A DNA stretch of 59,206 nucleotides, the filler included, from Squatina squatina (lineage: Eukaryota), in the NCBI GenBank assembly GCA_031763465.1. It is 4 parts of 4 records of this genome, joined end to end, with 100 filler letters (N's around TTAATTAATTAA, not from the genome) between each part and the next. Parts side by side here need not be neighbours in the genome. Positions count along the whole stretch, not along the records: positions 1 to 13,190 come from JARFOE010000219.1; 3 more parts are not named here. One strand, given 5' to 3'. A program made the position numbers and the translations under genes. This document shows positions 1 through 41,500 of the stretch, one piece after another. Numbering within the stretch: the stretch's first letter is position 1; every line of letters begins with the position of its first letter. The notes beneath the pieces were generated by a model. That model made no database searches. It worked only from the letters and a program-made list of their open reading frames with translations, and was not told where the DNA came from.

Positions 1-930
1 TTTTTTTAATGTAAAAATAAATGTCTCTGGCCACAGAAGCACAGTCAGTCTTAAAGGAGCTAAATGTTCAGTTAAACAAGCAGCATCTGTATCTTTGGAA
101 CAGAAAAGGGACAAAGTATAGGATCTGGCCTGGCCAAGTAGATCTGCTTACAAAGCTCTTACCCCAGATACTCTTTTCCTGGAAATGTTGTACATTCGTG
201 TACTAAATTCAGTTTATATTTGGGAGTGAATTAAATGCACCAGATTCCTTTCAGTGAGGAATCTGTACTGTGGTAAGACTCTTATTTCAATCTTTGTTTC
301 TTATAAAGGGGCAGTGGCTTTTTTTTTTGGCTCTGAGGCACACCGCATAAACAATATTTCCTTTTTTTATGGTAAGTTATTTTCTGAATGATTTGAAATA
401 ACTGAAACAGCAAGAAATTTTATTTCCTAAAGTTGCGGCACTTCTTGCTTCAAAACTTTGGGTGGCATGAAAGGAAGACAGCCAAGGAGGTTAAAGGGGA
501 GGGAGTTAATGCCAAAGGAAAAATAAATAACGGTGGAATAATATCCAGAGAAAAGTTTTATCTTTGGGATCGTTCTGTTTCGTTAAACTGTTTGCAGAGT
601 CTCACCTCAGGGTGGGTCGGAGAAGATTAATTTTATAAGTGATATTTTTATCCACACTATCTATTAATTGTTTACAAGACAAGTCATAACCAACACAAAA
701 TCATATCAGGTCAGGTTTTGGTGTGGGAACACGAAGAGTTCATTCTCTGGAACCTTCCATCACATGTGCCAATCTGTAATCCCCTGGGTCCAAGCTTTTA
801 TTAATATATCTGCAGCCAGATGTCTTGTGTCAGCTGCAACATCGCTGTGTAAATGTAAACAAATCCTCTTTATCAGTTAAAACCAATGCACTAATATATA
901 TTAATAAGTATATGTGTGAAAAGAAAAAAA

Positions 931-1045
931 CAAACTTGCATTTATATAGCGCCTTTCACAACCTCAGGATGTCCCAAAGTGCTTTACAGCCAATGAAGTA
1001 CTTTTTTGGAGTGTAGTCTCTGTTGTGACGTAGGAAATGCGGCAG
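931..1045 (-). mobile_element. DeuSINE (SacSINE1-like) 3' end
   Basis: Reverse complement ends GTGAAAGGCGCTATATAAATGCAAGTT; highly similar to 14591-14705. Confidence 0.75.
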
Positions 1046-2469
1046 NNNNNNNNNNNNNNNNNNNNNNNNNNNNNNNNNNNNNNNNNNNNNNNNNNNNNNN
1101 NNNNNNNNNNNNNNNNNNNNNNNNNNNNNNNNNNNNNNNNNNNNNAGCGATTTTGCATTAACAGTTGTTGAATTCTGAAGTAAATTTACCATTTTTATGC
1201 CAATAAAAATATTTGTGTCTTTCCATGTATAAAGCGCCACAAGTGACTATCTACTGTTTACTTCCCAACTCTCCACCCACACATTGGCAGCTATTGAGCC
1301 ATTTTATCTCCAGGCTTGCCTAAAAAGGCTATTTGTATGTTTGTGTGAGTAATTTTGAATAGAGCACTGTGCAGACACTGAGCTATAGCCAGAAGTTTAC
1401 AAAAGTTCAGCTCTTTTCAGCCACACTGAGCACTCGTCTCAAAGCAATTGTGGAACAGTTACTTTATGTATTCTGGACCCCTTCCTGTTTGACTCTTGTT
1501 GCTATTTGCGGCACATCTTGTAGACACAAAGTTTTCTTCTGTGAAGTATCCAGGGTTAGTGGCCAATTTAGGCCCCCTTTATATCACAGCTCTTCCATGA
1601 TTGGCAGCCCCTATTACTGCAGCAATATTAAGGGACGGCTGGCTGAGTAGAGACACGCCTCAAGAGGCCGTGTTTACTTGCGCTTCTCTGCTGACAGGAG
1701 TGTAAATTGCTGCTGTCGGCAGCACTGGCGACCATTTGTTTTCTGACCTTTAGTGACCTGAAAACTCAGCCTGCCCAATCAGGACAGCCGTGCAGTTTTC
1801 ACATTTATGCAAATTTATGCAAAACCATTGGGGATTGTTACTTTTCAATAACTGCATGTGTGCAATGTATTTTCTCCACTGGTACTGTGCATCCGGCCTT
1901 GTAAATAAAGCCAGCTCCATTTGCAGCAGGTGCTCCAGCACAGTGNNNNNNNNNNNNNNNNNNNNNNNNNNNNNNNNNNNNNNNNNNNNNNNNNNNNNNN
2001 NNNNNNNNNNNNNNNNNNNNNNNNNNNNNNNNNNNNNNNNNNNNNTACAACCGCCCCTCTTGCCTGGTTTAGCACTCCAAGAGATGTCGTATCACTTGAT
2101 TTCACACGACACTTCCCTCCTGGAGTGCGAAACTGGAAGTTCACGTACGCTGGAAACGGGTAGCACTCCCGCAAAAGTTATCACCCCAAAGGGGGCGCTA
2201 TGCAATTTCTAGCCCTAAATGTCCATTGCACTGCCACCTACAGGTGTAACAGGTACTGCAGGTGCATGTTAACACTCTTAAAATGGGTTTTCACATTAGC
2301 AAAAGTCTGACATGAGAGTTTTCAATGCATTTAAGCTGGTACACATATATAACGAGATTTGCAAGTTCCACCCCAAGAAGACACAAAAAACAGTGGAAAG
2401 CTTTATACTCTTTCAGCAAATGGGTGCCAAACGTGAATAAATGTAATAGATTTCACCAAAACATGCACC

Positions 2470-2621
2470 GGGGCTGAAATTCCCCTACTTTCTCGCCCCG
2501 TCTCACTCCTGCCACCGTATCACGAATACCACGGCAGGTGCTCAGTTCCGGGAGCTGGCACAAAAAATACCGGCCCCGGAGCTTTACCACCCCATGGACA
2601 CCCCGGAGGAATTTCACCCCC
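2470..2621. mobile_element. Short MITE, probably PIF/Harbinger-type
   Basis: TIRs GGGGCTGAAATTCC...GGAATTTCACCCCC (13 of 14); flanks acc/atc. Confidence 0.7.
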
Positions 2622-2819
2622 ATCATATTTAAAATAAAAGCAAATTATCATTAGACTGAAAGGGAATGCAATATTAAAAGCAGATAACAATTTCAGGTTG
2701 TACAGCAGCTGCTGTACCACTGTACTCTAAACATTAAGATTTGAGTAAGCCATATTTTTTATTAATCGGTTTACTTACTAATATGGGAACATAACTCCTA
2801 TGAACTTTTTCCTTTGCAG

Positions 2820-2987
2820 GATCATGCTTTCCCTCTTTGAGACCAACAGACACAGTTTTCAAAGTAATATTTTGGATGGGTTACTCTAACAGTTGTGTAA
2901 ACCCCATTATTTACTCTTGCTCCAGTAAAGATTGCTTGGCAGGAATTTCTCCAACTCCATAAAATTAAAGGCCACAAAAATCCATAG
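2820..2987 (+). pseudogene. Alpha-1 adrenergic receptor (ADRA1-like) last coding exon, frameshifted; antisense within the CSGALNACT1 intron
   Basis: Acceptor tttttcctttgcAG (2818-2819), then phase-1 (G)GA: [38 protein letters not shown], versus recalled ADRA1D [38 protein letters not shown]. Contains the NPxxY motif and starts at the conserved alpha-1 intron position after TM6. In-frame stop TAA at 2960-2962; the +1 frame from 2937 gives helix-8-like [16 protein letters not shown] (TAG 2985-2987). Confidence 0.85.
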
Positions 2988-3783
2988 TGGGTGCATCCCA
3001 ATAAAACTACGAAGATATGCCTGCTAGGAACTCCACTGCTGACCCTGATGCAGTTTCTGGCCTCAGTAGGAAGTTGTCTCATTAGCCAGTCAATGACTGG
3101 GGCTCATCTAAAATAGCTGCCTGTCAAACACGACAGAAAGCCTAGCTAAAGATTACCCAGGCTGGGGGAGATTCTGGTTTCCTCAGAAAGAAGAAGGAGT
3201 GCGGGAATCCCGCCAGGTAAAAGGAGGCGAATATGGCCGGATCCATGAGGTAAGTGCATTTACAGCACTGCTGTGGGCCAGGCCCAATAAACCCACAAAA
3301 TCGGAGCCCCACCCTCCAATGGTCTCTGATCCCCACCACCCTCGAAGCCTCCGATTCCCCCACCCGACCCATGAGGCCTCCGATCCACCCTCCAATCTTC
3401 GGCCCTGGCCTCGATCCTCCCTCCGGTCCCCTGCCTTCCCCCCCACCCCCCATCTCCCCCAGCCTCCGACACCCGCTCTGGCCCCCTGACCACCACTCCA
3501 GCCATCCTCCTTCGGGCCTCCAATCCCAACTCCAGCCCCTGACCATTCCTCCAGCCACCTATATTATTTGGACTTTTTTGTAGCTTTAAGTAGTGTTATA
3601 AATGATCAGTTTTTATGAGACAAACTATTGGGGTCAATAAACTACATAACCCTGGAAACTGCACATTGTGTTGTCATAAAAACATATTCCTCTCTGCTAT
3701 TTTAATGGGGGCATTAAACAGTTTATTTTAAATAAGTTAGTGCCCTTTTAAAACAACAAAGTCATTTGAGCTGAAGACTTTAA

Positions 3784-4525
3784 GGTGCCCCAATTAGTGT
3801 GCACCAGAATCGCGGGCTGCATTGGTCAGTCTTTTTGCGCCGGCCCCGGAGCAGTGTCTTCTGACCCTCAATTGGGGTCTTTGTGTGGTTTCTAGCTCAG
3901 TGCAACATGGCAGTGCTAACGAAGCGCTGACCTGGCGAGTGCGGCCTAGCGTCAGCAACATGTCTAGCGCCATGTTGCCAAAGCCAGCGCGCTTGCGTCG
4001 GCAGCGGCCCCACCGCCTGCATTAAAGGGGAGGGCCACTGGCTGAGGCAATGGAGCCATGGGGTCCACCACTTGGTCACCAAGGAGCCGGGTGGTAGGGA
4101 CGGGGGTGCAAAAGGCTGCCACGCCAGAGGCGCTGGGGGCCAATTGGCCGTCATACATCGTCCGATATGGAAGTCGGCCGATGTAAAAAAAAACAAAAGC
4201 TGGCTGACTGCATTAGCACCTCCCCTTTAACAACGGCAACGTTGGCAACGGCAGGTTGAACCTGTCACTGCCAACGATGTGGGCCTCGCCGGTGAATCGC
4301 GGACCAATTCTGGCCTTGGCTTGCCAGCGACGCATATGGGGTCGGCGGGCGACTTGATGACAGTGCGCGCCGTACCCCGGTGCCAGTGGCATCCCCGATG
4401 ATGAGGCCTTTGCGCTGCCGTGGTGCCATCACAAATCCAGGGGGACAGGAAAAATTTCCCCTAACGCTGCTTTAGCGCCCAGCTAGCACCATTTTATGGC
4501 ACTAAAATAGACCAATTGGGTGGCC
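3784..4525. mobile_element. GC-rich non-autonomous DNA element, PIF/Harbinger-like
   Basis: Ends GGTGCCCCAATT...AATTGGGTGGCC; CpG-rich relative to the flanks; similar termini near 19001, 42298 and 52310. Confidence 0.55.
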
Positions 4526-4665
4526 TTTGTGCTTTATTTGGTAATCAAAGATTTTGAACAGTGTTGGTTTCTGCCCTAAAATATTGGCCTTGTAACGGTT
4601 GACTGATGCTTAACATCTATGTTGTACTGTGTATCTGTAATTATAATTATTTCTTCCTTCTGCAG

Positions 4666-4799
4666 AGATAGAATTCATTGAGGATGTTGTGCCAGAACAT
4701 GACCTGTGCCCTGAGATCTCTGGCTGTAATCTGCTAAATAGGCAGTGCGTCTGTGAAATCGTACACTCCTGTGTCAACCTGTTCACGTATCCTGATCTG
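4666..4799 (+). CDS. CRIM1 (cysteine-rich motor neuron 1)-like exon, homologous to the post-IGFBP exon 2; 3' end lost in a gap; coding status uncertain
   Basis: Acceptor atttcttccttctgcAG (4664-4665), phase 1, open to the gap: (E)IEFIEDVVPEHDLCPEISGCNLLNRQCVCEIVHSCVNLFTYPDL. Same spacing GC-x6-C-x-C-x5-C-x-N-x-F-x-[FY]-P as recalled CRIM1 AGCNIINGKCECNTIRTCSNPFEFP. Confidence 0.7.
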
Positions 4800-4899
4800 N
4801 NNNNNNNNNNNNNNNNNNNNNNNNNNNNNNNNNNNNNNNNNNNNNNNNNNNNNNNNNNNNNNNNNNNNNNNNNNNNNNNNNNNNNNNNNNNNNNNNNNN

Positions 4900-5577
4900 C
4901 TCGCAGCATGAATCCACGATCTCATCTCCCTCATTTGGGAGGAGAAGAGCATGCCAGGAGATCTCAGAGATGCTATAATCGTGACCATCTTTAAGAAAGG
5001 AGACAAGTCCAATTGTGGAAACTACAGAGGGGTCTCCCTGCTGTCCGCCACAGGGAAGGTCATCACATGAATCCTCCTCAATCGTCTCCTGCCAGTGGCT
5101 GAAGAGCTCCTCCCCGAGTCGCAATGCGGTTTCCGCCCCTCCAGGGGTAAACAGACATGATTTTCAGCACACGCCAAATCCAAGAAAAGTGCAGGGTGCA
5201 ACATCAACCTCTGTACATGGCCTTCTTCGACCTTACGACGGTCTGCGAATCTGTCAACCGGGAGGGATTATGGAGTGTTTTCCTCNNNNNNNNNNTCAAG
5301 GAAGGCTGTGTCATTGCACCGACGCTTTTCTCCATCTTCCTCGCTGCAACACTCCATCCCGTCTCTATGAAGCTCCCCATTGAAGTCGAGCTAATCTTCA
5401 GAACAAGTGGGAAACTCTTCAACCTCCAGTCTAAATCCAAGGTCACCCCAACCACCGTCACCCAGCTGCAATATGCAAATGACATATGCGTACACTCGGA
5501 GGCTGAGCTCCAATCCACCGTCGACATATTCACTGAGGCATATGAGAGAATGGGCCTCACACTGAACATCCGCAAGA
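4900..5577 (+). mobile_element. RTE-clade non-LTR retrotransposon, reverse transcriptase fragment (decayed)
   Basis: Frames give DAIIVTIFKKGDKSNCGNYRGVSLLS, EELLPESQCGFRPSRG, DMIFSTRQIQEKCRVQHQPLYMAFFDL, KEGCVIAPTLFSIF and LQYAND (YADD-like), with frameshifts. Confidence 0.88.
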
Positions 5578-5677
5578 NNNNNNNNNNNNNNNNNNNNNNN
5601 NNNNNNNNNNNNNNNNNNNNNNNNNNNNNNNNNNNNNNNNNNNNNNNNNNNNNNNNNNNNNNNNNNNNNNNNNNNNN

Positions 5678-5935
5678 CACAAACAGCAATGAGATAAATG
5701 ACTGGTGATGTTGGTTGAGGGATAATTATTGGCCAGGATATCAGGAAGAACTCCCCTTCTCTTTGAATAGTGCCATGTGTTCTTTTACATCCACTTTGGG
5801 GGGTAGACGGAGAACCTCCAAATGTACTACACTGAGGTGTCCGCCTAGATAATGTGCTCAATTCTTTTGAGTGGTACTTGAACCCACAACTTCTGACTCA
5901 GGGGTGAGCATGCTACCATGGAGCCACGACTGACA
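5678..5935 (-). mobile_element. DeuSINE (SacSINE1-like) 5' part
   Basis: tRNA-like head (reverse complement GGTTCAAGTACCAC) and Deu-like core (reverse complement GGATGTAAAAGAACACATGGCAC); matches the 14591 and 23463 copies. Confidence 0.75.
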
Positions 5936-8204
5936 GTTAGTTAATAAATGATACCAAAGTCAAGGGTTTCAGGACTTAGCTGATTACAGCTGTGAATTAG
6001 AGCTGTTAACTTTGAAAACTAAATTCTGTTTCCCATTATATAGGCAATTCATTATCCAATTTACTACTTCCTCCTTGATCCCAAGAGCTTTCCCTTCAAC
6101 CAGAAGTCTCATTAATGCTTAATTATTCAAATAATTAAATATCTCAAAAATACATCGATTATATGCTATGATATTTGAATTCTAAAATTCAACTATTTCA
6201 TGAAGGTGTAGTTAATTTTGTGCAAGTTGGATTCACAACAGAACTGCTGTTTTTATTAAGTATAAATTTTATAGACACATGAGGCACTTAGCTATTTTAC
6301 ATTACAAGGCTGTAAAATCTATGCTAAGTGCCTCAGCTGCCTTCAAATTATGGTCAAAGTCACAGACTAAGACAAAGACCAGGAAAGGTATTACAACACA
6401 TTATTGGAACAAAATGAGAAACTGTTTTGTTTAAATGGTTAAAAAAATCTACAGGCAAACAGTCAAAAGCAATTAAAATGTAGTTATTACATCATATGTC
6501 TGCCCATGAATTTAGTTTAAAATGTTGCTACATACTGGAGTCCCAAGTTATTTACTGGTGTTTTTAGGGAGAGTGGGAATGGTCTGCTTTCTTGGAACTA
6601 ACCATCAAAATGGAAAGTTGTGACTCACCCTTGTAGTTACAATAGAATTCTTCATAGTCTCTAAAATTTGTGTGGAGTTTATTTATATTACACAATCTCT
6701 TGCTGAAGTTAAGTTTTTTTTAGTGCTAATGTTAGAAAAATCTGGTTGATTTATCTTGCTATTATGCATCTGACATTCTTTTGAAACTGTTATAACCATT
6801 GTAATTTCCTAAATAGAGCACAATTCTGTTGGACTGCACTGTTAATAACTGTTGAACTATGTTTGAGTAAGGGACCCAAAACCCATCCCGGTTTCTTATG
6901 TAAACCACCTGAGTGGTGAGAAGTGCCAGCATTTCTGTTGACAATGCTTCTTCAGGGACCAGCAGNNNNNNNNNNNNNNNNNNNNNNNNNNNNNNNNNNN
7001 NNNNNNNNNNNNNNNNNNNNNNNNNNNNNNNNNNNNNNNNNNNNNNNNNNNNNNNNNNNNNNNNNTTCTAGCCTTGAGAGTTTGTTTAAAATCTGCATGG
7101 ACAGGCACCATTGGGAAAAAGTCCTGACGTAGTCTTGAATATGGATTTGGCATAGTCCCAATCAATCATACAAACCATGAAATGTTTATCTGTATGCAAC
7201 AAATCTGCTGGAAAATAGTGAAATTGCACAATGCCAAATATCACTGGCTTCTGGGGGACATGGCCCAGCAACCCCCATCCCCATTTTAAATAAGAACCTT
7301 ATGCATTTGGCACTCTCATCTCCTTTATTCATCCCCCAATCTGCCTCTGCATAAATACATGCGGGGGGTGGGGGTGGTCTGTGTGTGTGTGTAAAAATGC
7401 ATTTTTGTTTTGCAGGCTTCAGAGTGAAACCAGCTCTCCATTTCTGGATCATATAGTAGGTTGAGAAGACCTTTGTAATCTCAGCATTAAAAATGAGAGA
7501 ATATGTGTTATGCTATGGATGCTCTTTATGTATGCGAACTGTGAGACAGAGTGTCTCGAATATTTGTTTTGCTGCTGTTTTCTTTTCTATTGGTACGTCT
7601 CGATGCTAAGAGTTTAGAATCAACCCTTCATCCTAAAATGTCTTTATAGTCTGAACTTTTACAAGCATAACATTGAATAGAATTGTGTTATAACTTATCA
7701 TTGGCAGTCATTCAATTTGGAATGACTTACATGAGAATTAGCTCTGAGATCCCTATGTGTACTGACCATATAATACCAGAGGAGTTACCAAACCACAGGG
7801 AATGGCAGCACTGAAGCTGCTTTGTTCTTTGCTGATCTTGTTCCAAAGGCAGTTAGTGAACAGAACGTACATTGTATGGTTTCTTGTAGAAGGGTAAACC
7901 TGAATTGACAGTGTGTCCTCTCAGACCACCAGACAGTGGGTAACAGCACAGCTCTTCAGTTGCAGATTGTATGCCTAATAGACCATGGGCTTAATAAATC
8001 TGAGTGCAAGGAAGATCTTTTTAAACTGCTGTCACTTGTCCTTCCATTTTATAGTGATGACAAAAATTGCTGCTGCACATATGGAGCAAATATTCATTTA
8101 NNNNNNNNNNNNNNNNNNNNNNNNNNNNNNNNNNNNNNNNNNNNNNNNNNNNNNNNNNNNNNNNNNNNNNNNNNNNNNNNNNNNNNNNNNNNNNNNNNNN
8201 AAAG

Positions 8205-8536
8205 TAGATTATCTTTGTGATGGAAGCTCAGCTCGGGGTCAAATAGAATATTGAGGTTGCAGACGATCTGGTTCAACAAGAGACTGTGACTGGGGAGGGG
8301 AACTGAGTTTGGGGCAGGGGCTGAAGACCATGGCTTCATTCTTCCACAAAATTTGTGGCTTCTCCAAGGCTGGATGTCTGATGAGCAGTCTGACAGCATA
8401 GAGACAGTGGAGTGATTGAAAGTAGTGTTGGAAAGGTAGAGCTAGAGGTAATTAGAGATAGGGAGGGGCAAGGCCTTGCACAGATTTAAAGATGAGGACA
8501 AGGTGTCTGTGGATGATGTTGCCAAGGGGAAGCACT
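8205..8536 (-). mobile_element. L2 LINE ORF2 fragment (internally deleted)
   Basis: Minus-strand translation SVPLPSHSLLLNQIVCNLNILFDPELSF and LSDCSSDIQPW, typical of the L2 post-RT region. Confidence 0.7.
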
Positions 8537-11524
8537 GACTAGGAAGATTTGATCATCATCCCTTATTTAGACAAGCATGTCCAGATCAATAATGAACATA
8601 TCCCACTGAATGGGTTTTCTTCCCCATTTCTTCCCTCATGGTCTGAAAGTGCAAACTGGCATGTGCTTGCTGCCCTTTCATACCTCACCAGGTGGCTAGT
8701 CTTCATAAATTAACTTTGATAGTGACAGTTGGTGGGCTTTTTGACAGATTAACGCAGCTGAAAATGATTCTATCCTCTTTTAAAACACATACACTTCTGA
8801 CAAAGGACACTCAAGTAATGGCCCATCACAATTCCAATTGAGATCAGCTAACTTCACGCAGATCAGAGATAGAACTTTGGACCCTCCTCACCATTGTGGC
8901 AGAGTACCATGCTGTGAATTTACCAACTGAAGTATTTAGAAGCCTCTTTATTATGTATTTTTTATACTATTGTTCAGTTGTATACAAACTTCAATCTCAT
9001 TTATGTTTTATTACAGCTGTTGTCAAAGGGTTAACTGTTATCTTTGGTATATTGTTCCAGAAATACTTGAAAAATGGCCCTTTCTAAACCTTCAGGGCCA
9101 CAAAATTTAAGCTGGTTAAACGCAGCAAATAATTAGCACAAATCGGACTCGGTTACTTGGGCTTCAGTGGACAGATTGCCAGGGCTTGGGAGCCACAGTT
9201 TGAACATACTTGCTTTATAGCACCCACTGCTGAGATGTTGTCCAGCGGCCTAATGGAAACTTAAGTCGCTCTCCTAAATTCATGTGGAGTATAATCACAT
9301 TTTTAACAGGGCAGTCGATTTTCATTGTTTCTTCGAAATCCCCTTCTTTCTTCCCCATTTTATGGGTGAAGACAATAGCCAAACATTTTTTTTTAATTAA
9401 GTGTTTAAGAAATGGAAGTGGTGCCAATTCTCAAAGCCAGCACTTACCCTGTATAACTGCTAAAATTGTAGTAAGTTCATGTCCCTTTAATATATTACTG
9501 AAGCTGCAGATTGTTACAGTGCCCCTGGGAATTCAATTTATGAATACTTTGAATCTGGTTTGGGTGATGACCAGCTCAGTAAGGAAAGCAAGGTCTGCTT
9601 TGGCCAAGGTTCAGTACAGATGCTTTACACATTCAAGCATAATGTTAGTCAAAGCAGGGGAATCAATGGGCACATTGTATGGCATATGCAAGCTTTAATC
9701 CTCTATTTACATCACACCATCCTTTGCAATTCTGTGAGGATGTTATCGACTATTTTTTGAATATGTTCAGAAGGCTTCTGTTGATGTGAGTGGCCCTCTT
9801 CCCCCAAGTTGTAGAACATTTTCTAGTTCCAACCAAAGTCAACTAGATCTGCAACATTTTAACTTGTTCTCGAATTGAAGTATGTATCTAAACCACTTTT
9901 ACAAAACTGTAAATCTCTACCTCCTTCAATCTTCCCTTTGAACTTTCTTCTCTTCTTCCTCCTAAAATCCAATTACCCCATCCTACTCGCTCTTCCTCCT
10001 TCCTGCAACACCATCTCCTTCCCTAACATTCATACAATGAATGATACAGCACAGGAGGCCATTCAGCCCATCGTGCCTGTGCCAGCTCTTTGGTAGAGNN
10101 NNNNNNNNNNNNNNNNNNNNNNNNNNNNNNNNNNNNNNNNNNNNNNNNNNNNNNNNNNNNNNNNNNNNNNNNNNNNNNNNNNNNNNNNNNNNNNNNNNTT
10201 GCAAAATAGATGCATACAAAATTACTTTAAGAAACATCGGCTTTTGAACTTAATTTTGTATCACAAAGAGGAGTGCCAACTTTTTTTTTTAAACGATAGG
10301 TAAATATATACATGGGCTGGTAAAGTGGGAATGATTTCCAGTTTGATCAGCTCGAGCATTTACTCTGAGGAGAAATGGCCTTTGGAGTGGAAAGGGAGAT
10401 GGTTTACAATTACCAAGCACATTAGATAAATGTCTTGTATTTGAATTGGCCAGTTGCTGGAACCATACCTGACAGTGTCACTTTAAATATGTGTGCATTG
10501 CCATAAAAGATTGCTTATCCAAACTGACCACATAGCTAGAGAAAATGTTTTGTTAGTAGACAAAGACATGTGGGATCCTACTGCATTTTTGAATTGTTTC
10601 AAGTAGAGAAATTAATAGACGTGCTACATATTTTAACAAACTACCCTACATTTCATTACAAAATTTAGAACAGCTTCTAAGTAATCCAATAAAAAAGACC
10701 TTTATAATGAATCAGAAAATGGTTGGCAACCAACACAGTATTAATGCAGAGCGATTTAAGAACGAAATGACTTTGTACAGTTTTGTCCCTGAATATTCAT
10801 CTGTAAGGTTAGTTTTGTTCTTGGTAAAGTTAATTGAACTGGGCTGAATTAGTCGACACAAACCCCATTCCCAGACATACTGAAAATTTTTGTGTTGATA
10901 AATAGTTCCTTTTTTTTTAACGTAAATATTCCTTGGTAAATGGCTAATATACCACTGCTCCATGTAATTTGCTTTCAGTTAGCAGTTCAGTATGTAATTT
11001 AATGGGAGCACTTTATACCTCCATACCTAATACGTTCAAATAATTGGGAACTGCAAAGATATATAGGCGTAGCATGTGATTAGCAGCTGATGTGGAAGAT
11101 GAGCTGGGAGCTTGGGAGAGGGGGGAAAAAGCAGCAGGACTCTGAAAGCAGCTTCACAGGGGCACTTCATCCAAGCTGAAATTGATAAAGGGAGAGAAAA
11201 ACCCTTTTATTTCCCAAAACTTGTCAAATGATCATGAAAACTACAAAACTATTTAGTGCACTGGCACCAGACATCTTGTTGCTATGCCGCACCTGCCAGA
11301 GGAATTTGACAGTCCTAAAGAAATTGCCTTGTGTATATGTAAGGCCCTATACTCCATACACCACAAATAAATAGTGTGATCTTCTCTGAATGTAGGTTAA
11401 ATTCTCATGACCTACCTTTTGAACCTTTTGTCACTTTTCCATTTTCCAAACCCACATCTGTTTGGCTCTAGAATTCCAACTTAACCATATCCAACTGAAA
11501 TGCCACATGGACAGATGCCAAATA

Positions 11525-24572: not shown

Positions 24573-26599
24573 GTACCTGGTGGGCCGGGAGGTACGGAGA
24601 CTCGCGATCCCCAGCCTCTCCATATACCCGCGGGAAGAGGCCCACATATCTCAGGAGCACAAGAGGTTTGCAAGTGGCCCTGGGATCACGTGGGCCGGCC
24701 CAATGAAAGCCAGAAGGGGATCCCCATTCATGCTTATTTGAAAAATAAATTGACATGTTTTACAGGGGCTGGAAACAAATTTATTTTATGTCACAGGTTT
24801 TTAAATGTATAAATTATTGATAACATTTTATTTTTGTTTTTTAAAAAAAAAACTCTTGCGCTTTTACCAGGCGAAAGAATTTCACGGGCGAATTGTCCAA
24901 CTCTCCAACTCTCCGCCCGCGAATGACCTTTTCCCGAGGATGCGCCGGATTGGTCAAGACAATACTTGACAGATCCCAAGATCCGGGTTTTCGCGTATGC
25001 CTAAACCCGGAACCTGGACGGCTCCCATGGGCGCATGCGCATCTCGTACACGCCCGTAGGGGCCCACAAACTAGGGCCCCGCCTTTTCTGGCCCAGCATT
25101 CAACCCAGATGTTTACCCACCACCTTGAAACTCNNNNNNNNNNNNNNNNNNNNNNNNNNNNNNNNNNNNNNNNNNNNNNNNNNNNNNNNNNNNNNNNNNN
25201 NNNNNNNNNNNNNNNNNNNNNNNNNNNNNNNNNATAAATAATTACAGAGCAGACCTTCTTCAAGGCAAAGTTCAAGTGCGATTGCTTCACATGCTCACAG
25301 TGCCTTCCTGCACGCTATTGTTACGCAGACATTAGCCCATGTAAAATGAATGCCTGCATTTTAAAAAAAAAGGAGCACGCAGGAATGTGGCACAACCACA
25401 TTAACCGCTCATACGTGAACCTCATCGGTCTGAAGTTTTACCCTTGTATTTGGTTTGAGCTCAAATTACACAGTAAGTTTAAAGCAAATCCACAGACTGC
25501 CGCGACAAAGAGAATTTTACATTTGGTGCCTCTGACATCTCCCAGGTGGCATCCAGGACCAGAATAGATCCTGCAGGTAGATATTAGAGAGCTGAATCAA
25601 TGCACAGTTCATTGTTTGAAGTCATTAAACACAGCAGACTTGTACACCATCTGAAATATTGTGGATGACAGGGAGAAATTACCTCATGCTTTCTACAAAG
25701 TTTAAAGGGACCCTTCTCTACACCATTTCTCTCTCAGTTAGTAACCTAAAATGATGCTTATAAGTATAACACTATTCCAAATAGACAGGTACCAGTGTCT
25801 AAATCAGCAGCAGTGGCAGAGGAGAATTCAGAGAAGATAAGTGTAGGAGGAAGTGCTTCCAATACAAATTACTCTTACTCCCAATCTCAACAGATCATAA
25901 ACGATAGTTTAGAAAGTTCCCGACCTTGTATAAGAGATTCACCTCCATCCTGGGGATGCATAATATTGCGTCTTCGATTCAGCAAGGAGCAGATTAGCCG
26001 TTGTCAATCACAGGATGCAACAGAGAGNNNNNNNNNNNNNNNNNNNNNNNNNNNNNNNNNNNNNNNNNNNNTTAATTAATTAANNNNNNNNNNNNNNNNN
26101 NNNNNNNNNNNNNNNNNNNNNNNNNNNCAGCGATTCTAATACATCACATGATCCAGGGCAAGGAAGAACCTCCAGAACCACTGGCGTCCCCTGCGTCATC
26201 GCCGCTGTATGCTGTGCACAGAGATTAATGGTCTCTTAACACTGAGAGTGCTGTCAATCACTACACAGGGACTTTTATCTTATGGCGAAGGGAGGTTGTT
26301 GTTACCCTGCTGCTGCTGTAAGTGCAATCTTTCCTTAATCCATGTTAAGAAGGATTTGGAGGAAGGTACTCTGAAATGGAAGGTACTGAGAAAAACAATA
26401 ATTTAATGTGTTGAACAGAAGGTAGCTGAAGGGGGAGAGGAGGGGAGCAGAGGTGAACTAAAATGCCTAAAACACAACTTAAGATAACTAACTGCAAAAA
26501 TGAAGCTTGAGTGATTTTCAAACATCACCTACAGTCAGCGATTATTTGAATTTCTGCCCCGTGCTCTTCTCCAGATATGTTATTTCATAGAATATACAA

Positions 26600-38543: not shown

Positions 38544-41500
38544 GTGGAGTCCTTTAAGCACTTTCAGTTGTACCATTTTTAAAAAATTAACTAAATTAAT
38601 CCATATTTGGACTACTGAATGCCTTTCAGACACATGTTTTATGACTCTTGTGATTTGTCAGAAGGAAAAGGATATCTGTGGATTGTTAATGGTGATTGCT
38701 GTATAGTTGCATTGTGGAACTGCAGCTATTTACTTAATTTATAGTGAGCATTTGTCATAGAAAATGGCAGATTAGAACCTTACTTTGGTGCACAAATGTT
38801 GCTGCAATCCTCTGAGGGTTAACAGATATTCTGAGCTCATCACAGATATTATGTACATGTCACTTAGCTATGACTTATGGGAAAAGAAAGAGATCTGATG
38901 AGGTGTGATAAGTAATGTCCTTTAAGGAGTAATGTCCTAAATGATTTGAAAATGATTCACCCTCAAAGAATCATTTTCTAATCATGATATTATATAACAG
39001 GATAATTTCAANNNNNNNNNNNNNNNNNNNNNNNNNNNNNNNNNNNNNNNNNNNNTTAATTAATTAANNNNNNNNNNNNNNNNNNNNNNNNNNNNNNNNN
39101 NNNNNNNNNNNAAAGTCGTGACATGGAGCCAGGAGTGGGGTTTGAATCCACCCCCGACGCCACCTGCCTCTCTCCCACCTTGGTATGGGACATCGCGGCT
39201 GTTGTGTGCAAGGCGTGAGGTGTGTGGAAGTGAGCGTTGCCATGGTGCCCAGATCGAATTTCTCGGTCATTGTATCTGTAAATTGTTGTTCGACAATGTC
39301 ATGACAATTTTCTTATTAATACCATATGTTTTTTACTTAGTTTTTCTCAAATCAATTTTATTTCTATTAATTTATCCCACGTACAATATAAACTCAAACA
39401 GCACTTTAATTAAAATATGAACAATATATTTTCCTCCAGTAATTATAGGCAATAATTGCTGCTATGCCTCTGATATGTTAAAGATGAAAGTTTTAATTAT
39501 AGCCTCTCAGATTAGATTAGATATAAGGGCGCCTTATATAGGTAAAATTAATTATAACTGCTCCTCTATTGCCTTGCTTTGACAGGCTTTATTACATTTG
39601 GATTGTGTGGACTTAGGCTATGTGTGAGCCCATCATAGATGTACTGTTGAAGAAGTGTTTGGTTCCATGTGATTTTTTTGTACATTTAATGACGCAGTAT
39701 GGGTTGGATGGAAAGATTAATCATTATAAAACTGCATAGAGAATGTGCAGCTTAATCTTAAAATGTAATTTCAGTCATCGGGTGGTTTTAGCGGTAATAG
39801 ATTCTTCTTGCAATCAAAGTACTTGACGTTTAATTTCTATCCTTGACTACCATTCAAATTTGGCTTAGTGGGTGAACCTCACCAGTTATTGGCTAAGGGA
39901 ACAGGTAAAACATTCCCGGACCTGAGACACCGAGGTTAAGGGCCCAAATTATTGGCAACACCAAGTTTGAAATGAGTGGGAAGGACGATGAGGTAAATCA
40001 AGATGCAATGATTAGATGACATGAAGCTAGTTTTTGAAAGCTTGTAGAAGCATGGGCAGATTGAGGGAGGTAACAAGTTCCACAGTTTTGTGTTGCTGGC
40101 AAAGAATGACTTAAAAGTAGGAGACAGTAGTGCAGATTTACACAGTGAANNNNNNNNNNNNNNNNNNNNNNNNNNNNNNNNNNNNNNNNNNNNNNNNNNN
40201 NNNNNNNNNNNNNNNNNNNNNNNNNNNNNNNNNNNNNNNNNNNNNNNNNTTGCTGAGGGAAAATTAAAACATAAAACAAGTGAGTTTTTTAACCAGCTTA
40301 AGTCATGTGACCACTGTAACTCTACTTAAATTCAAATAAAGCCTAACATTGTCCTAATAGAAGATGTTACGGCTCAAGTTTCACCAGACGAATGTTTCCA
40401 TTATTCAGATTATTATCAAGCTTTTCCCTGTTATCAGTACATGAAGAGCAGACTGCTGTCACAAAGCCTAATGAAAGAAAAGATGCAAGATAGATAATAG
40501 ACAGATCCCACAGCTTGACCCTTTGACTTGACAGACAAGAAATGGACACTCATCAAAATTTCATCTTGAGACTTAAAAGTCATTTGGAGTTCATGAAATC
40601 AAATTACGTCTCGCGTTTCCTCTCTATCCAATTTAATACTTCCTCCTTATTCTTAGAAGGCTAATAAAACTGCTGCTGCCCAGCTTATCAAGTTACCCAT
40701 TGTCACACCTGTCTGTCGAGAAACATGCTTTAGGTAAACATCGCCACTTCAATTTGCAGATGTATGGGTCATGCATATCCCAATGACAAGGCCATCTGAA
40801 CTGTCAGATGACATGGCTGTCAGAGAAACTAGTCAGCGTTTGAATTGATGGTGCAAATATCCGGTCACCTGGTATTCGTGGTTCAATTTTACTCCAAAGA
40901 GCTGAGATCATTTATAGATATCTCTGAGTGCTTCAATGTTAAGGGGAGGGGGGAATAGTACAGCTGTCACTGGCTGTGATTCCTTTGTTCACAATTGTAC
41001 AGCACAAGGTGATTCGATTACCCTTCTTATTGAAATGCAAGGTTGCTCGATCAACAAATGATAGTATAATTAACATATCTCTCTTTGTAACCTGAATTTG
41101 TGAATCTCTAATGAATTTATAGTCTATTAGCTGTGACACAATTGGAAGTCAGCCATTAATGACTCCTTTACTGGGCACTATCATGTGAAAAAATAACTGA
41201 TGATGAAATGTACTTCAGTTAAGCCTACTTATTAATGGATATGGAGAATGCAACATTATATTAGCCACATGATAGTTTAAGTATGAATAGGATTAAATGA
41301 AGGATGTCTGTAAAGGTCCAATTCCACACTTGGTTTGAAGTGCACAGTCCCATAAATCTCTGTAGATGAAAGGCCATTTTGAACTGTAAAACTGTTCTGA
41401 CAGCAACACTTTTCTCTTTCCATTTAAGAACAAAAGGTATCTCCTAACATTTGTAAAATGGACATACATAAGAATGTTTTGTTTATACATATTTGGCTTG

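Follow-up and report, generated by a model that had tools for sequence, protein, structure and literature searches.

Exon 2 of a CRIM1 paralog in the Squatina squatina genome assembly and its apparent position within CSGALNACT1

The window analysed here is a 59,206-nucleotide stretch of the Squatina squatina assembly which, according to its description, joins four records with 100-letter fillers between them, positions 1–13,190 being JARFOE010000219.1. A short cysteine-rich reading frame on its plus strand raised the question of whether it is a genuine exon, to which gene it belongs and whether that gene is really nested antisense in CSGALNACT1. The best reading of the whole, to which we assign a probability of about 0.85, is that it represents exon 2 of a full-length membrane-bound paralog of CRIM1, likely a growth-factor tether, on a contig misplaced next to a CSGALNACT1 exon.

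The exon and its surroundings

The exon is real. Its visible part (4666–4799, plus strand) is in phase 1 and, after two bases completing a split codon, contains 44 codons of a six-cysteine module without a stop (4668–4799). It is preceded by the 3' end of intron 1 (4565–4665, plus strand), whose pyrimidine tract at 4650–4665 ends in CAG with the acceptor AG at 4664–4665, and is directly followed by a 100-N placeholder gap (4800–4899, plus strand). All the elements reported in the first-pass annotation, i.e. the pyrimidine tract with AG, phase 1, the 44 open codons up to the gap and the quoted peptide, were reproduced in the sequence. Five of the six module cysteines are visible, the sixth falling inside the gap, which probably hides the remaining ~34 nt of the exon (11 codons, among them that of this cysteine) together with the donor, since the orthologous proteins run 11 residues further up to the site at which shorter isoforms leave out the following exon. 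A six-frame scan with the cysteine pattern taken from the family alignment produced a single match in the window and none in 30 base shuffles. A tblastn search of the window with 120 family proteins likewise produced a single locus at E ≤ 0.05 and no second exon of the CRIM1 paralog, in agreement with the earlier statement that no further exon of the CRIM1-like gene is present.

Four of 21 sequencing runs, all from other organisms, were compared with positions 2046–8100; 15 of the 21 are RNA by guess, none being recorded as RNA. Two of the RNA-by-guess contigs, X1 (3943 nt) and X5 (2732 nt), which came from two studies and two other organisms, matched exclusively positions 4664–4799 with one difference each in 136 nt. 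In X1 the match was preceded by 421 nt and followed by 3386 nt; the 421-nt lead fits exon 1 with a short UTR, and a spliced full-length mRNA would give such a layout. In the large runs of two relatives, X16 and X17 aligned unbroken over 4565–4799 with 5 and 4 differences, so that the native intron flank is kept and the exon is not a retrocopy. These observations support a live and spliced exon in the relatives, from which splicing in Squatina squatina itself may be expected.

A repeat origin, which the first-pass annotation had named, in the form of a match to a repeat consensus, among the outcomes that would discredit the exon, was ruled out: the depth in the large runs of the relatives was unique-like over the exon (~10–20, versus 10^4–10^5 on the neighbouring LINE/SINE sequences), and the exon matches a conserved protein. 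Such repeats were found just past the gap, where 4900–5577 and 5678–5890 contain LINE reverse-transcriptase fragments (RVT_1 with E 2e-4 at 5298–5576) together with a very high-copy short repeat. Upstream of the exon, the region 3100–4480 is GC- and CpG-rich with short imperfect repeats, and positions 4066–4469 had zero cover in the four runs compared, possibly being a lineage-specific insertion. Further downstream, a decayed transposase fragment of the Tc5/pogo type is located at 11640–12340 (HTH_Tnp_Tc5 with E 1.9e-13 at 11852–12079).

The exon-bearing contigs of the relatives extended ~985 nt beyond 4799 with no listed piece of them in 4900–8100, and a 5840-nt contig of a relative matching 7080–8100 extended 3673 nt to the left without covering either 6490–6893 or the exon. 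Because the contigs of the relatives skip neighbouring pieces of the window in this way, the gap lengths should be regarded as placeholders.

Identity of the gene and architecture of its product

A search with the 44-residue peptide against proteins of at least 78 residues, as had been proposed initially, resulted in seven candidates, of which five were named CRIM1-family proteins (best E 3.4e-20). These five, all chondrichthyan and named cysteine-rich motor neuron 1 protein or the same with '-like', were 98, 93, 84, 77 and 73% identical to the peptide. Identity reached 43 of 44 residues in three shark orthologs, including those of Cetorhinus (basking shark) and Carcharodon (white shark), and was 34–43/44 with 12 chondrichthyan paralog proteins versus 12–13/44 with three true CRIM1 proteins. 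The peptide corresponds to residues 117–161 of the orthologs, directly after the IGFBP domain, and a ray exon-1 read-through (P0270) stops at the same junction, which bears out the proposed assignment to a CRIM1-family exon following that domain. With the coelacanth paralog only 12 of 44 residues were identical in an ungapped alignment, indicating that the exon belongs to a fast-changing part of the gene. No Pfam family was assigned to the 44-mer at E ≤ 10, and a HMMER search with it against 1.84 billion representatives was uninformative: of its six hits, all weak, three were teleost orthologs read through from a single exon and the other three repeat proteins without relation to the family. 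Overall, the stretch represents the second exon of a full-length paralog of CRIM1 common to cartilaginous and bony fishes.

That the peptide is too divergent for the CRIM1 ortholog had been suspected from the beginning, and the 12–13/44 identity to true CRIM1 together with a separate clade in the trees upheld this judgement. The opposite reading, in which the exon is CRIM1 itself evolving fast in Squatina squatina, can draw on the RefSeq records of Cetorhinus and Callorhinchus, named without '-like', but is refuted by the presence of a separate CRIM1 of ~1035 residues in sharks, located on another chromosome-scale sequence, by the exon identity of 12–13/44 to this shark CRIM1 and by the trees placing the paralog apart; its probability is practically negligible.

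A word-index search with the Heptranchias protein resulted in 299 matches at E ≤ 1e-30. Among the 120 matches listed, 96 were, judged by best BLASTP score, on the paralog side and 24 on the CRIM1 side. In a quick tree of 43 rows, with one row per chosen taxon and 77 of the listed rows left out, two clades were recovered with an SH-aLRT of 100, each including cartilaginous and bony fishes. In a careful 16-row tree the paralog did not group with vertebrate CRIM1, forming a separate clade (100/100). Forcing all seven chondrichthyan rows of this tree together cost 313 log-likelihood units (p-AU 2.06e-7), and a shark-only duplication was rejected on this basis. Rooting was by midpoint, with no invertebrate or lamprey outgroup. 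The paralog clade contained sharks, rays, chimaera, coelacanth and ray-finned fishes. Since both fish groups hold both clades and given the AU test, the duplication, as judged from these trees, predates the split between chondrichthyans and osteichthyans; a genome duplication is its likely origin. Both genes are annotated in Cetorhinus, Carcharodon, Heptranchias, Heterodontus, Hypanus, Erpetoichthys and others, and they were found on different sequences in the listed chondrichthyans and bichirs. Unlike in sharks and bichirs, CRIM1 and the paralog of Anguilla anguilla (P0116 and P0441) were on sequences of equal length (88,055,840).

Among the 120 listed matches of 299, all 14 tetrapod rows grouped with CRIM1 and none with the paralog, which suggests a likely loss of the paralog in tetrapods. 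A single apparent exception, P0010 (CAI5696847.1), was a tilapia protein carrying a second, ferret label in nr; this record could pass for a mammalian copy of the CRIM1 paralog. In spiny-rayed fishes, several records that bear the name crim1 or 'cysteine rich transmembrane BMP regulator 1' were observed in the paralog clade (P0011, P0013, P0014, P0030, P0037, P0064, P0072, P0091 and the cluster of P0016). No true CRIM1 of spiny-rayed fishes was present among the 24 CRIM1-side rows of the 120 matches listed of 299, the paralog being the query. With the search started from the paralog and 179 of its hits unlisted, a loss of true CRIM1 in spiny-rayed fishes is only a lead, and either hidden paralogy or reciprocal loss is possible in this group.

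The paralog orthologs are ~890–900 residues long, with the domain order IGFBP, six-cysteine module, one cysteine-rich linker, five VWC domains with four antistasin repeats, a transmembrane helix and a tail of ~75 residues. The IGFBP domain was recognised above the cut-off in the Carcharodon ortholog (PF00219, E 3.2e-9); the corresponding exon 1 is absent from the window. Five VWC, four antistasin and one IGFBP domain were found in the Carcharodon and Latimeria paralogs (P0252 and P0301), and six VWC, four antistasin and one IGFBP domain in Carcharodon and Loxodonta CRIM1; six VWC repeats are also given for CRIM1 in two papers (PMC4725338, PMC3299674). A single hydropathy peak predicted a transmembrane helix at 796–814, present as a helix at 786–818 in the structure model, and the CRIM1_C family matched above the cut-off in P0252 (PF19442, E 5.4e-15) and below it in Latimeria. 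The model of the whole protein was poor (mean pLDDT 50.7, pTM 0.20), and fold searches with it matched VWC/FnI domains and the helix, adding nothing beyond Pfam. A sequence search of the PDB returned VWC, IGFBP7, antistasin and chordin entries but no structure of a CRIM protein.

The proposal that the exon comes from a short secreted IGFBP-CRIM protein failed at this point, since the orthologs have ~890–900 residues and a transmembrane helix. Although annotated shorter isoforms of 740–845 residues skip internal exons, the RNA-by-guess contig X1 continues for 3386 nt beyond the exon match, and the short database entries encountered are single-exon read-throughs or fragments; judged on proteins of at least 78 residues, we regard a short secreted product as hardly tenable.

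The second linker repeat, carrying the RGD site of CRIM1, was absent in all 11 paralog rows aligned, and the sixth VWC domain was also absent from the paralog in the alignment. Among the matches listed, RGD occurred in one of the 96 paralog-side rows, within the IGFBP domain, and the CRIM1-site motif in none of them, while 16 of the 24 CRIM1-side rows contained RGD. In chondrichthyan CRIM1 (P0039, P0048, P0327–P0354), all 17 records checked had PGD in place of the RGD of bony vertebrates. For this reason the absence of RGD fails to separate the two genes within sharks, and RGD may be a feature of bony vertebrates.

CRIM1 is reported to bind cystine-knot growth factors on co-expression (PMC4731764). 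In Carcharodon the VWC blocks were the best kept parts between paralog and CRIM1, with 90/132 and 128/220 identical residues. By analogy with CRIM1, the predicted single-pass membrane protein would hold growth factors of the BMP/TGF-beta/VEGF/PDGF type at the producing cell. The lack of the RGD linker and of the sixth VWC domain and the tail identity of 25/67 suggest that ligand tethering would be kept and RGD-dependent FAK activation is not to be expected; a role as a growth-factor tether without RGD signalling is, in our view, fairly probable.

The exon-2 module itself has eight positions (C14, G19, C20, C27, C29, C35, F39 and C47) invariant across 55 rows. Its model (56 residues, from the 55-row alignment) had a mean pLDDT of 79 and ~90 in the core, with a twisted hairpin at 16–33 and a C-terminal helix at 44–50 predicted. 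A structure search against 48,161 chains gave 21 matches at Z ≥ 2, all 21 Kunitz-type as judged by their titles; the best had a Z of 3.2, far below the level of a trusted match, with an rmsd of 2.4 over 41 residues. Foldseek gave no hit for the module model at E ≤ 0.001 (E ≥ 3). The hairpin and C-terminal helix of the model may resemble the Kunitz/BPTI fold. No sequence-profile match was obtained either in the module (the 44-mer being without a Pfam family at E ≤ 10) or in four full-length proteins, where the Kunitz profile was absent at E ≤ 0.01. The cysteine spacing of the module differs from the Kunitz pattern. The modelled arrangement might be shared with the Kunitz fold, a weak and consistent hint that implies neither membership nor an inhibitor function. 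The module pattern occurred twice, as tandem copies, in 18 of 23 ray-finned rows (e.g. P0008, P0009 and P0324), and some isoforms of the ray-finned paralog were without the second copy.

A wider picture, combining an unnamed second CRIM gene, reciprocal losses (tetrapods with CRIM1 only, spiny-rayed fishes maybe with the paralog only) and a Kunitz-like module that is doubled in ray-finned fishes and also present in human-type CRIM1, is tentative and on present evidence rather doubtful. If it were true, the other gene would lie behind many of the records labelled 'crim1' in medaka, tilapia, fugu and their relatives.

The question of nesting in CSGALNACT1

On the minus strand the window contains the first coding exon of CSGALNACT1 (20345–19703; 214 codons and 1 nt, with the donor GT at 19702–19701), which is 88% identical to Callorhinchus CSGALNACT1 and identical in 209 of 214 residues to that of Heptranchias, the closest. 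No later CSGALNACT1 coding exon was found in the window, leaving a single host exon on one side of the CRIM1-paralog exon. Between the two exons lies an artificial spacer (13191–13290, unstranded) that consists of 44 N, TTAATTAATTAA and again 44 N; identical spacers are present at 13191–13290, 26028–26127 and 39012–39111, i.e. ~12.9 kb apart. The same 12-base core is described in PMC3019230, where it separates concatenated scaffolds by providing stops in all six frames. The window as a whole consists of 42 pieces with a median of 1034 bp, 31 of its 41 N-runs are exactly 100 long, and the exon of the CRIM1 paralog is separated from that of CSGALNACT1 by 11 N-runs and one spacer.

In all 24 other species in which a chromosome-scale sequence was available for both proteins, the paralog and CSGALNACT1 were on chromosome-scale sequences of different length, the comparison being based on the length of the longest sequence bearing each protein and not on coordinates. 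This set included 11 sharks, 9 rays, Callorhinchus, Latimeria and two bichirs, i.e. 21 chondrichthyans, with one squalomorph shark. The lengths for the paralog and CSGALNACT1 sequences were, for example, 102.3 versus 250.2 Mb in Cetorhinus, 87.3 versus 198.6 in Heptranchias, 24.0 versus 139.2 in Callorhinchus and 69.2 versus 432.1 in Latimeria. Rhincodon (with CSGALNACT1 on a 25-kb scaffold), Pristiophorus (with no contig given), and the sturgeons, paddlefish and teleosts with extra duplications were left out of the set; the lengths seen in the latter fishes also differed.

Given the separate chromosome-scale sequences of the two genes in all 24 species and a fragmented assembly, in which gaps and a spacer part the exons, the nesting is very probably a misplacement, in which the 2.7-kb contig with the CRIM1-paralog exon would have been set mistakenly beside the CSGALNACT1 exon during scaffolding. 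The original claim of antisense nesting was therefore correct as to the CSGALNACT1 label, which holds for one minus-strand exon, and most likely wrong as to the nesting: with one host exon and 24 of 24 species contradicting it, a position inside CSGALNACT1 is the mere order of pieces in the assembly.

Two other explanations of this order were considered. In the first, a lineage-specific duplicate of the exon with its intron flank would reside in a CSGALNACT1 intron as an orphan or pseudo-exon, the working gene being elsewhere. It would account for the presence of a single exon of the CRIM1 paralog across 59 kb, for the homology to the contigs of the relatives ending at 4565 and being patchy over 2920–3753, and for the GC-rich repeat-like sequence and the LINE fragment at the flanks. 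However, there is no decay in the exon, whose acceptor is intact and frame open, with 43/44 identity to three shark orthologs and one difference in 136 nt to the RNA-by-guess contigs of the relatives, and the patchiness is equally explained by repeat insertions in the flank and the fragmented assembly; we consider such a displaced duplicate unlikely. In the second, the CRIM1 paralog and CSGALNACT1 would be truly interleaved on opposite strands after a translocation. This agrees with the order and strands in the window, and large introns could push the other exons beyond its 59 kb; but the two genes occupy separate chromosome-scale sequences in every one of the 24 species (including 21 chondrichthyans), the artificial spacer and 11 gaps lie between the two exons, and there would be no simple route by which two intact multi-exon genes from different chromosomes could become interleaved, making this explanation highly improbable. 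A misplaced contig remains the preferred reading. The scaffold being pieced together, gene-order claims from the Squatina squatina genome need care.

Relation to known genes

RefSeq already lists the gene, automatically named, in dozens of fishes, and it is apparently unstudied. No paper on the CRIM1 paralog was found by title and abstract, subscription papers and supplements (including ohnolog tables that may list the gene) being outside this search. The suggestion of a little-described CRIM1 paralog is thus matched by automatic RefSeq names and no paper found on the gene. It is a conserved relative of a key BMP/VEGF regulator and could buffer the loss of crim1 in fish models. With no second linker, no sixth VWC domain and another tail, it also provides a natural deletion series for mapping the parts of CRIM1. 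Fish records named crim1 inside the paralog clade would mislead orthology-based work.

The closest known counterparts are the fish genes named 'cysteine-rich motor neuron 1 protein-like' in RefSeq (XP_041070890.1 in Carcharodon, XP_067847413.1 in Heptranchias, XP_064421074.1 in Latimeria and XP_015206403.1 in Lepisosteus), which are the same gene, the exon being identical in 43/44 residues to that of Carcharodon and equal in position and phase. They differ in not being located on the CSGALNACT1 chromosome and are known by automatic annotation only. The Kazald quartet (PMC12955574) represents a similar case of an unnamed vertebrate paralog recognised by phylogeny, with lineage-specific losses, in a different gene family. 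In common with CRIM1, the paralog has a type I membrane topology, IGFBP, VWC and antistasin domains, a CRIM1_C match and the conserved cysteines, G and F of the module. In contrast, it is shorter (~895 versus ~1035 residues), with five VWC domains versus six and one linker of ~80 residues without the RGD site versus two, evolves faster in bony fishes and, in Carcharodon, shares with CRIM1 49% identity overall, 15/56 residues in the exon-2 module and 25/67 in the tail.
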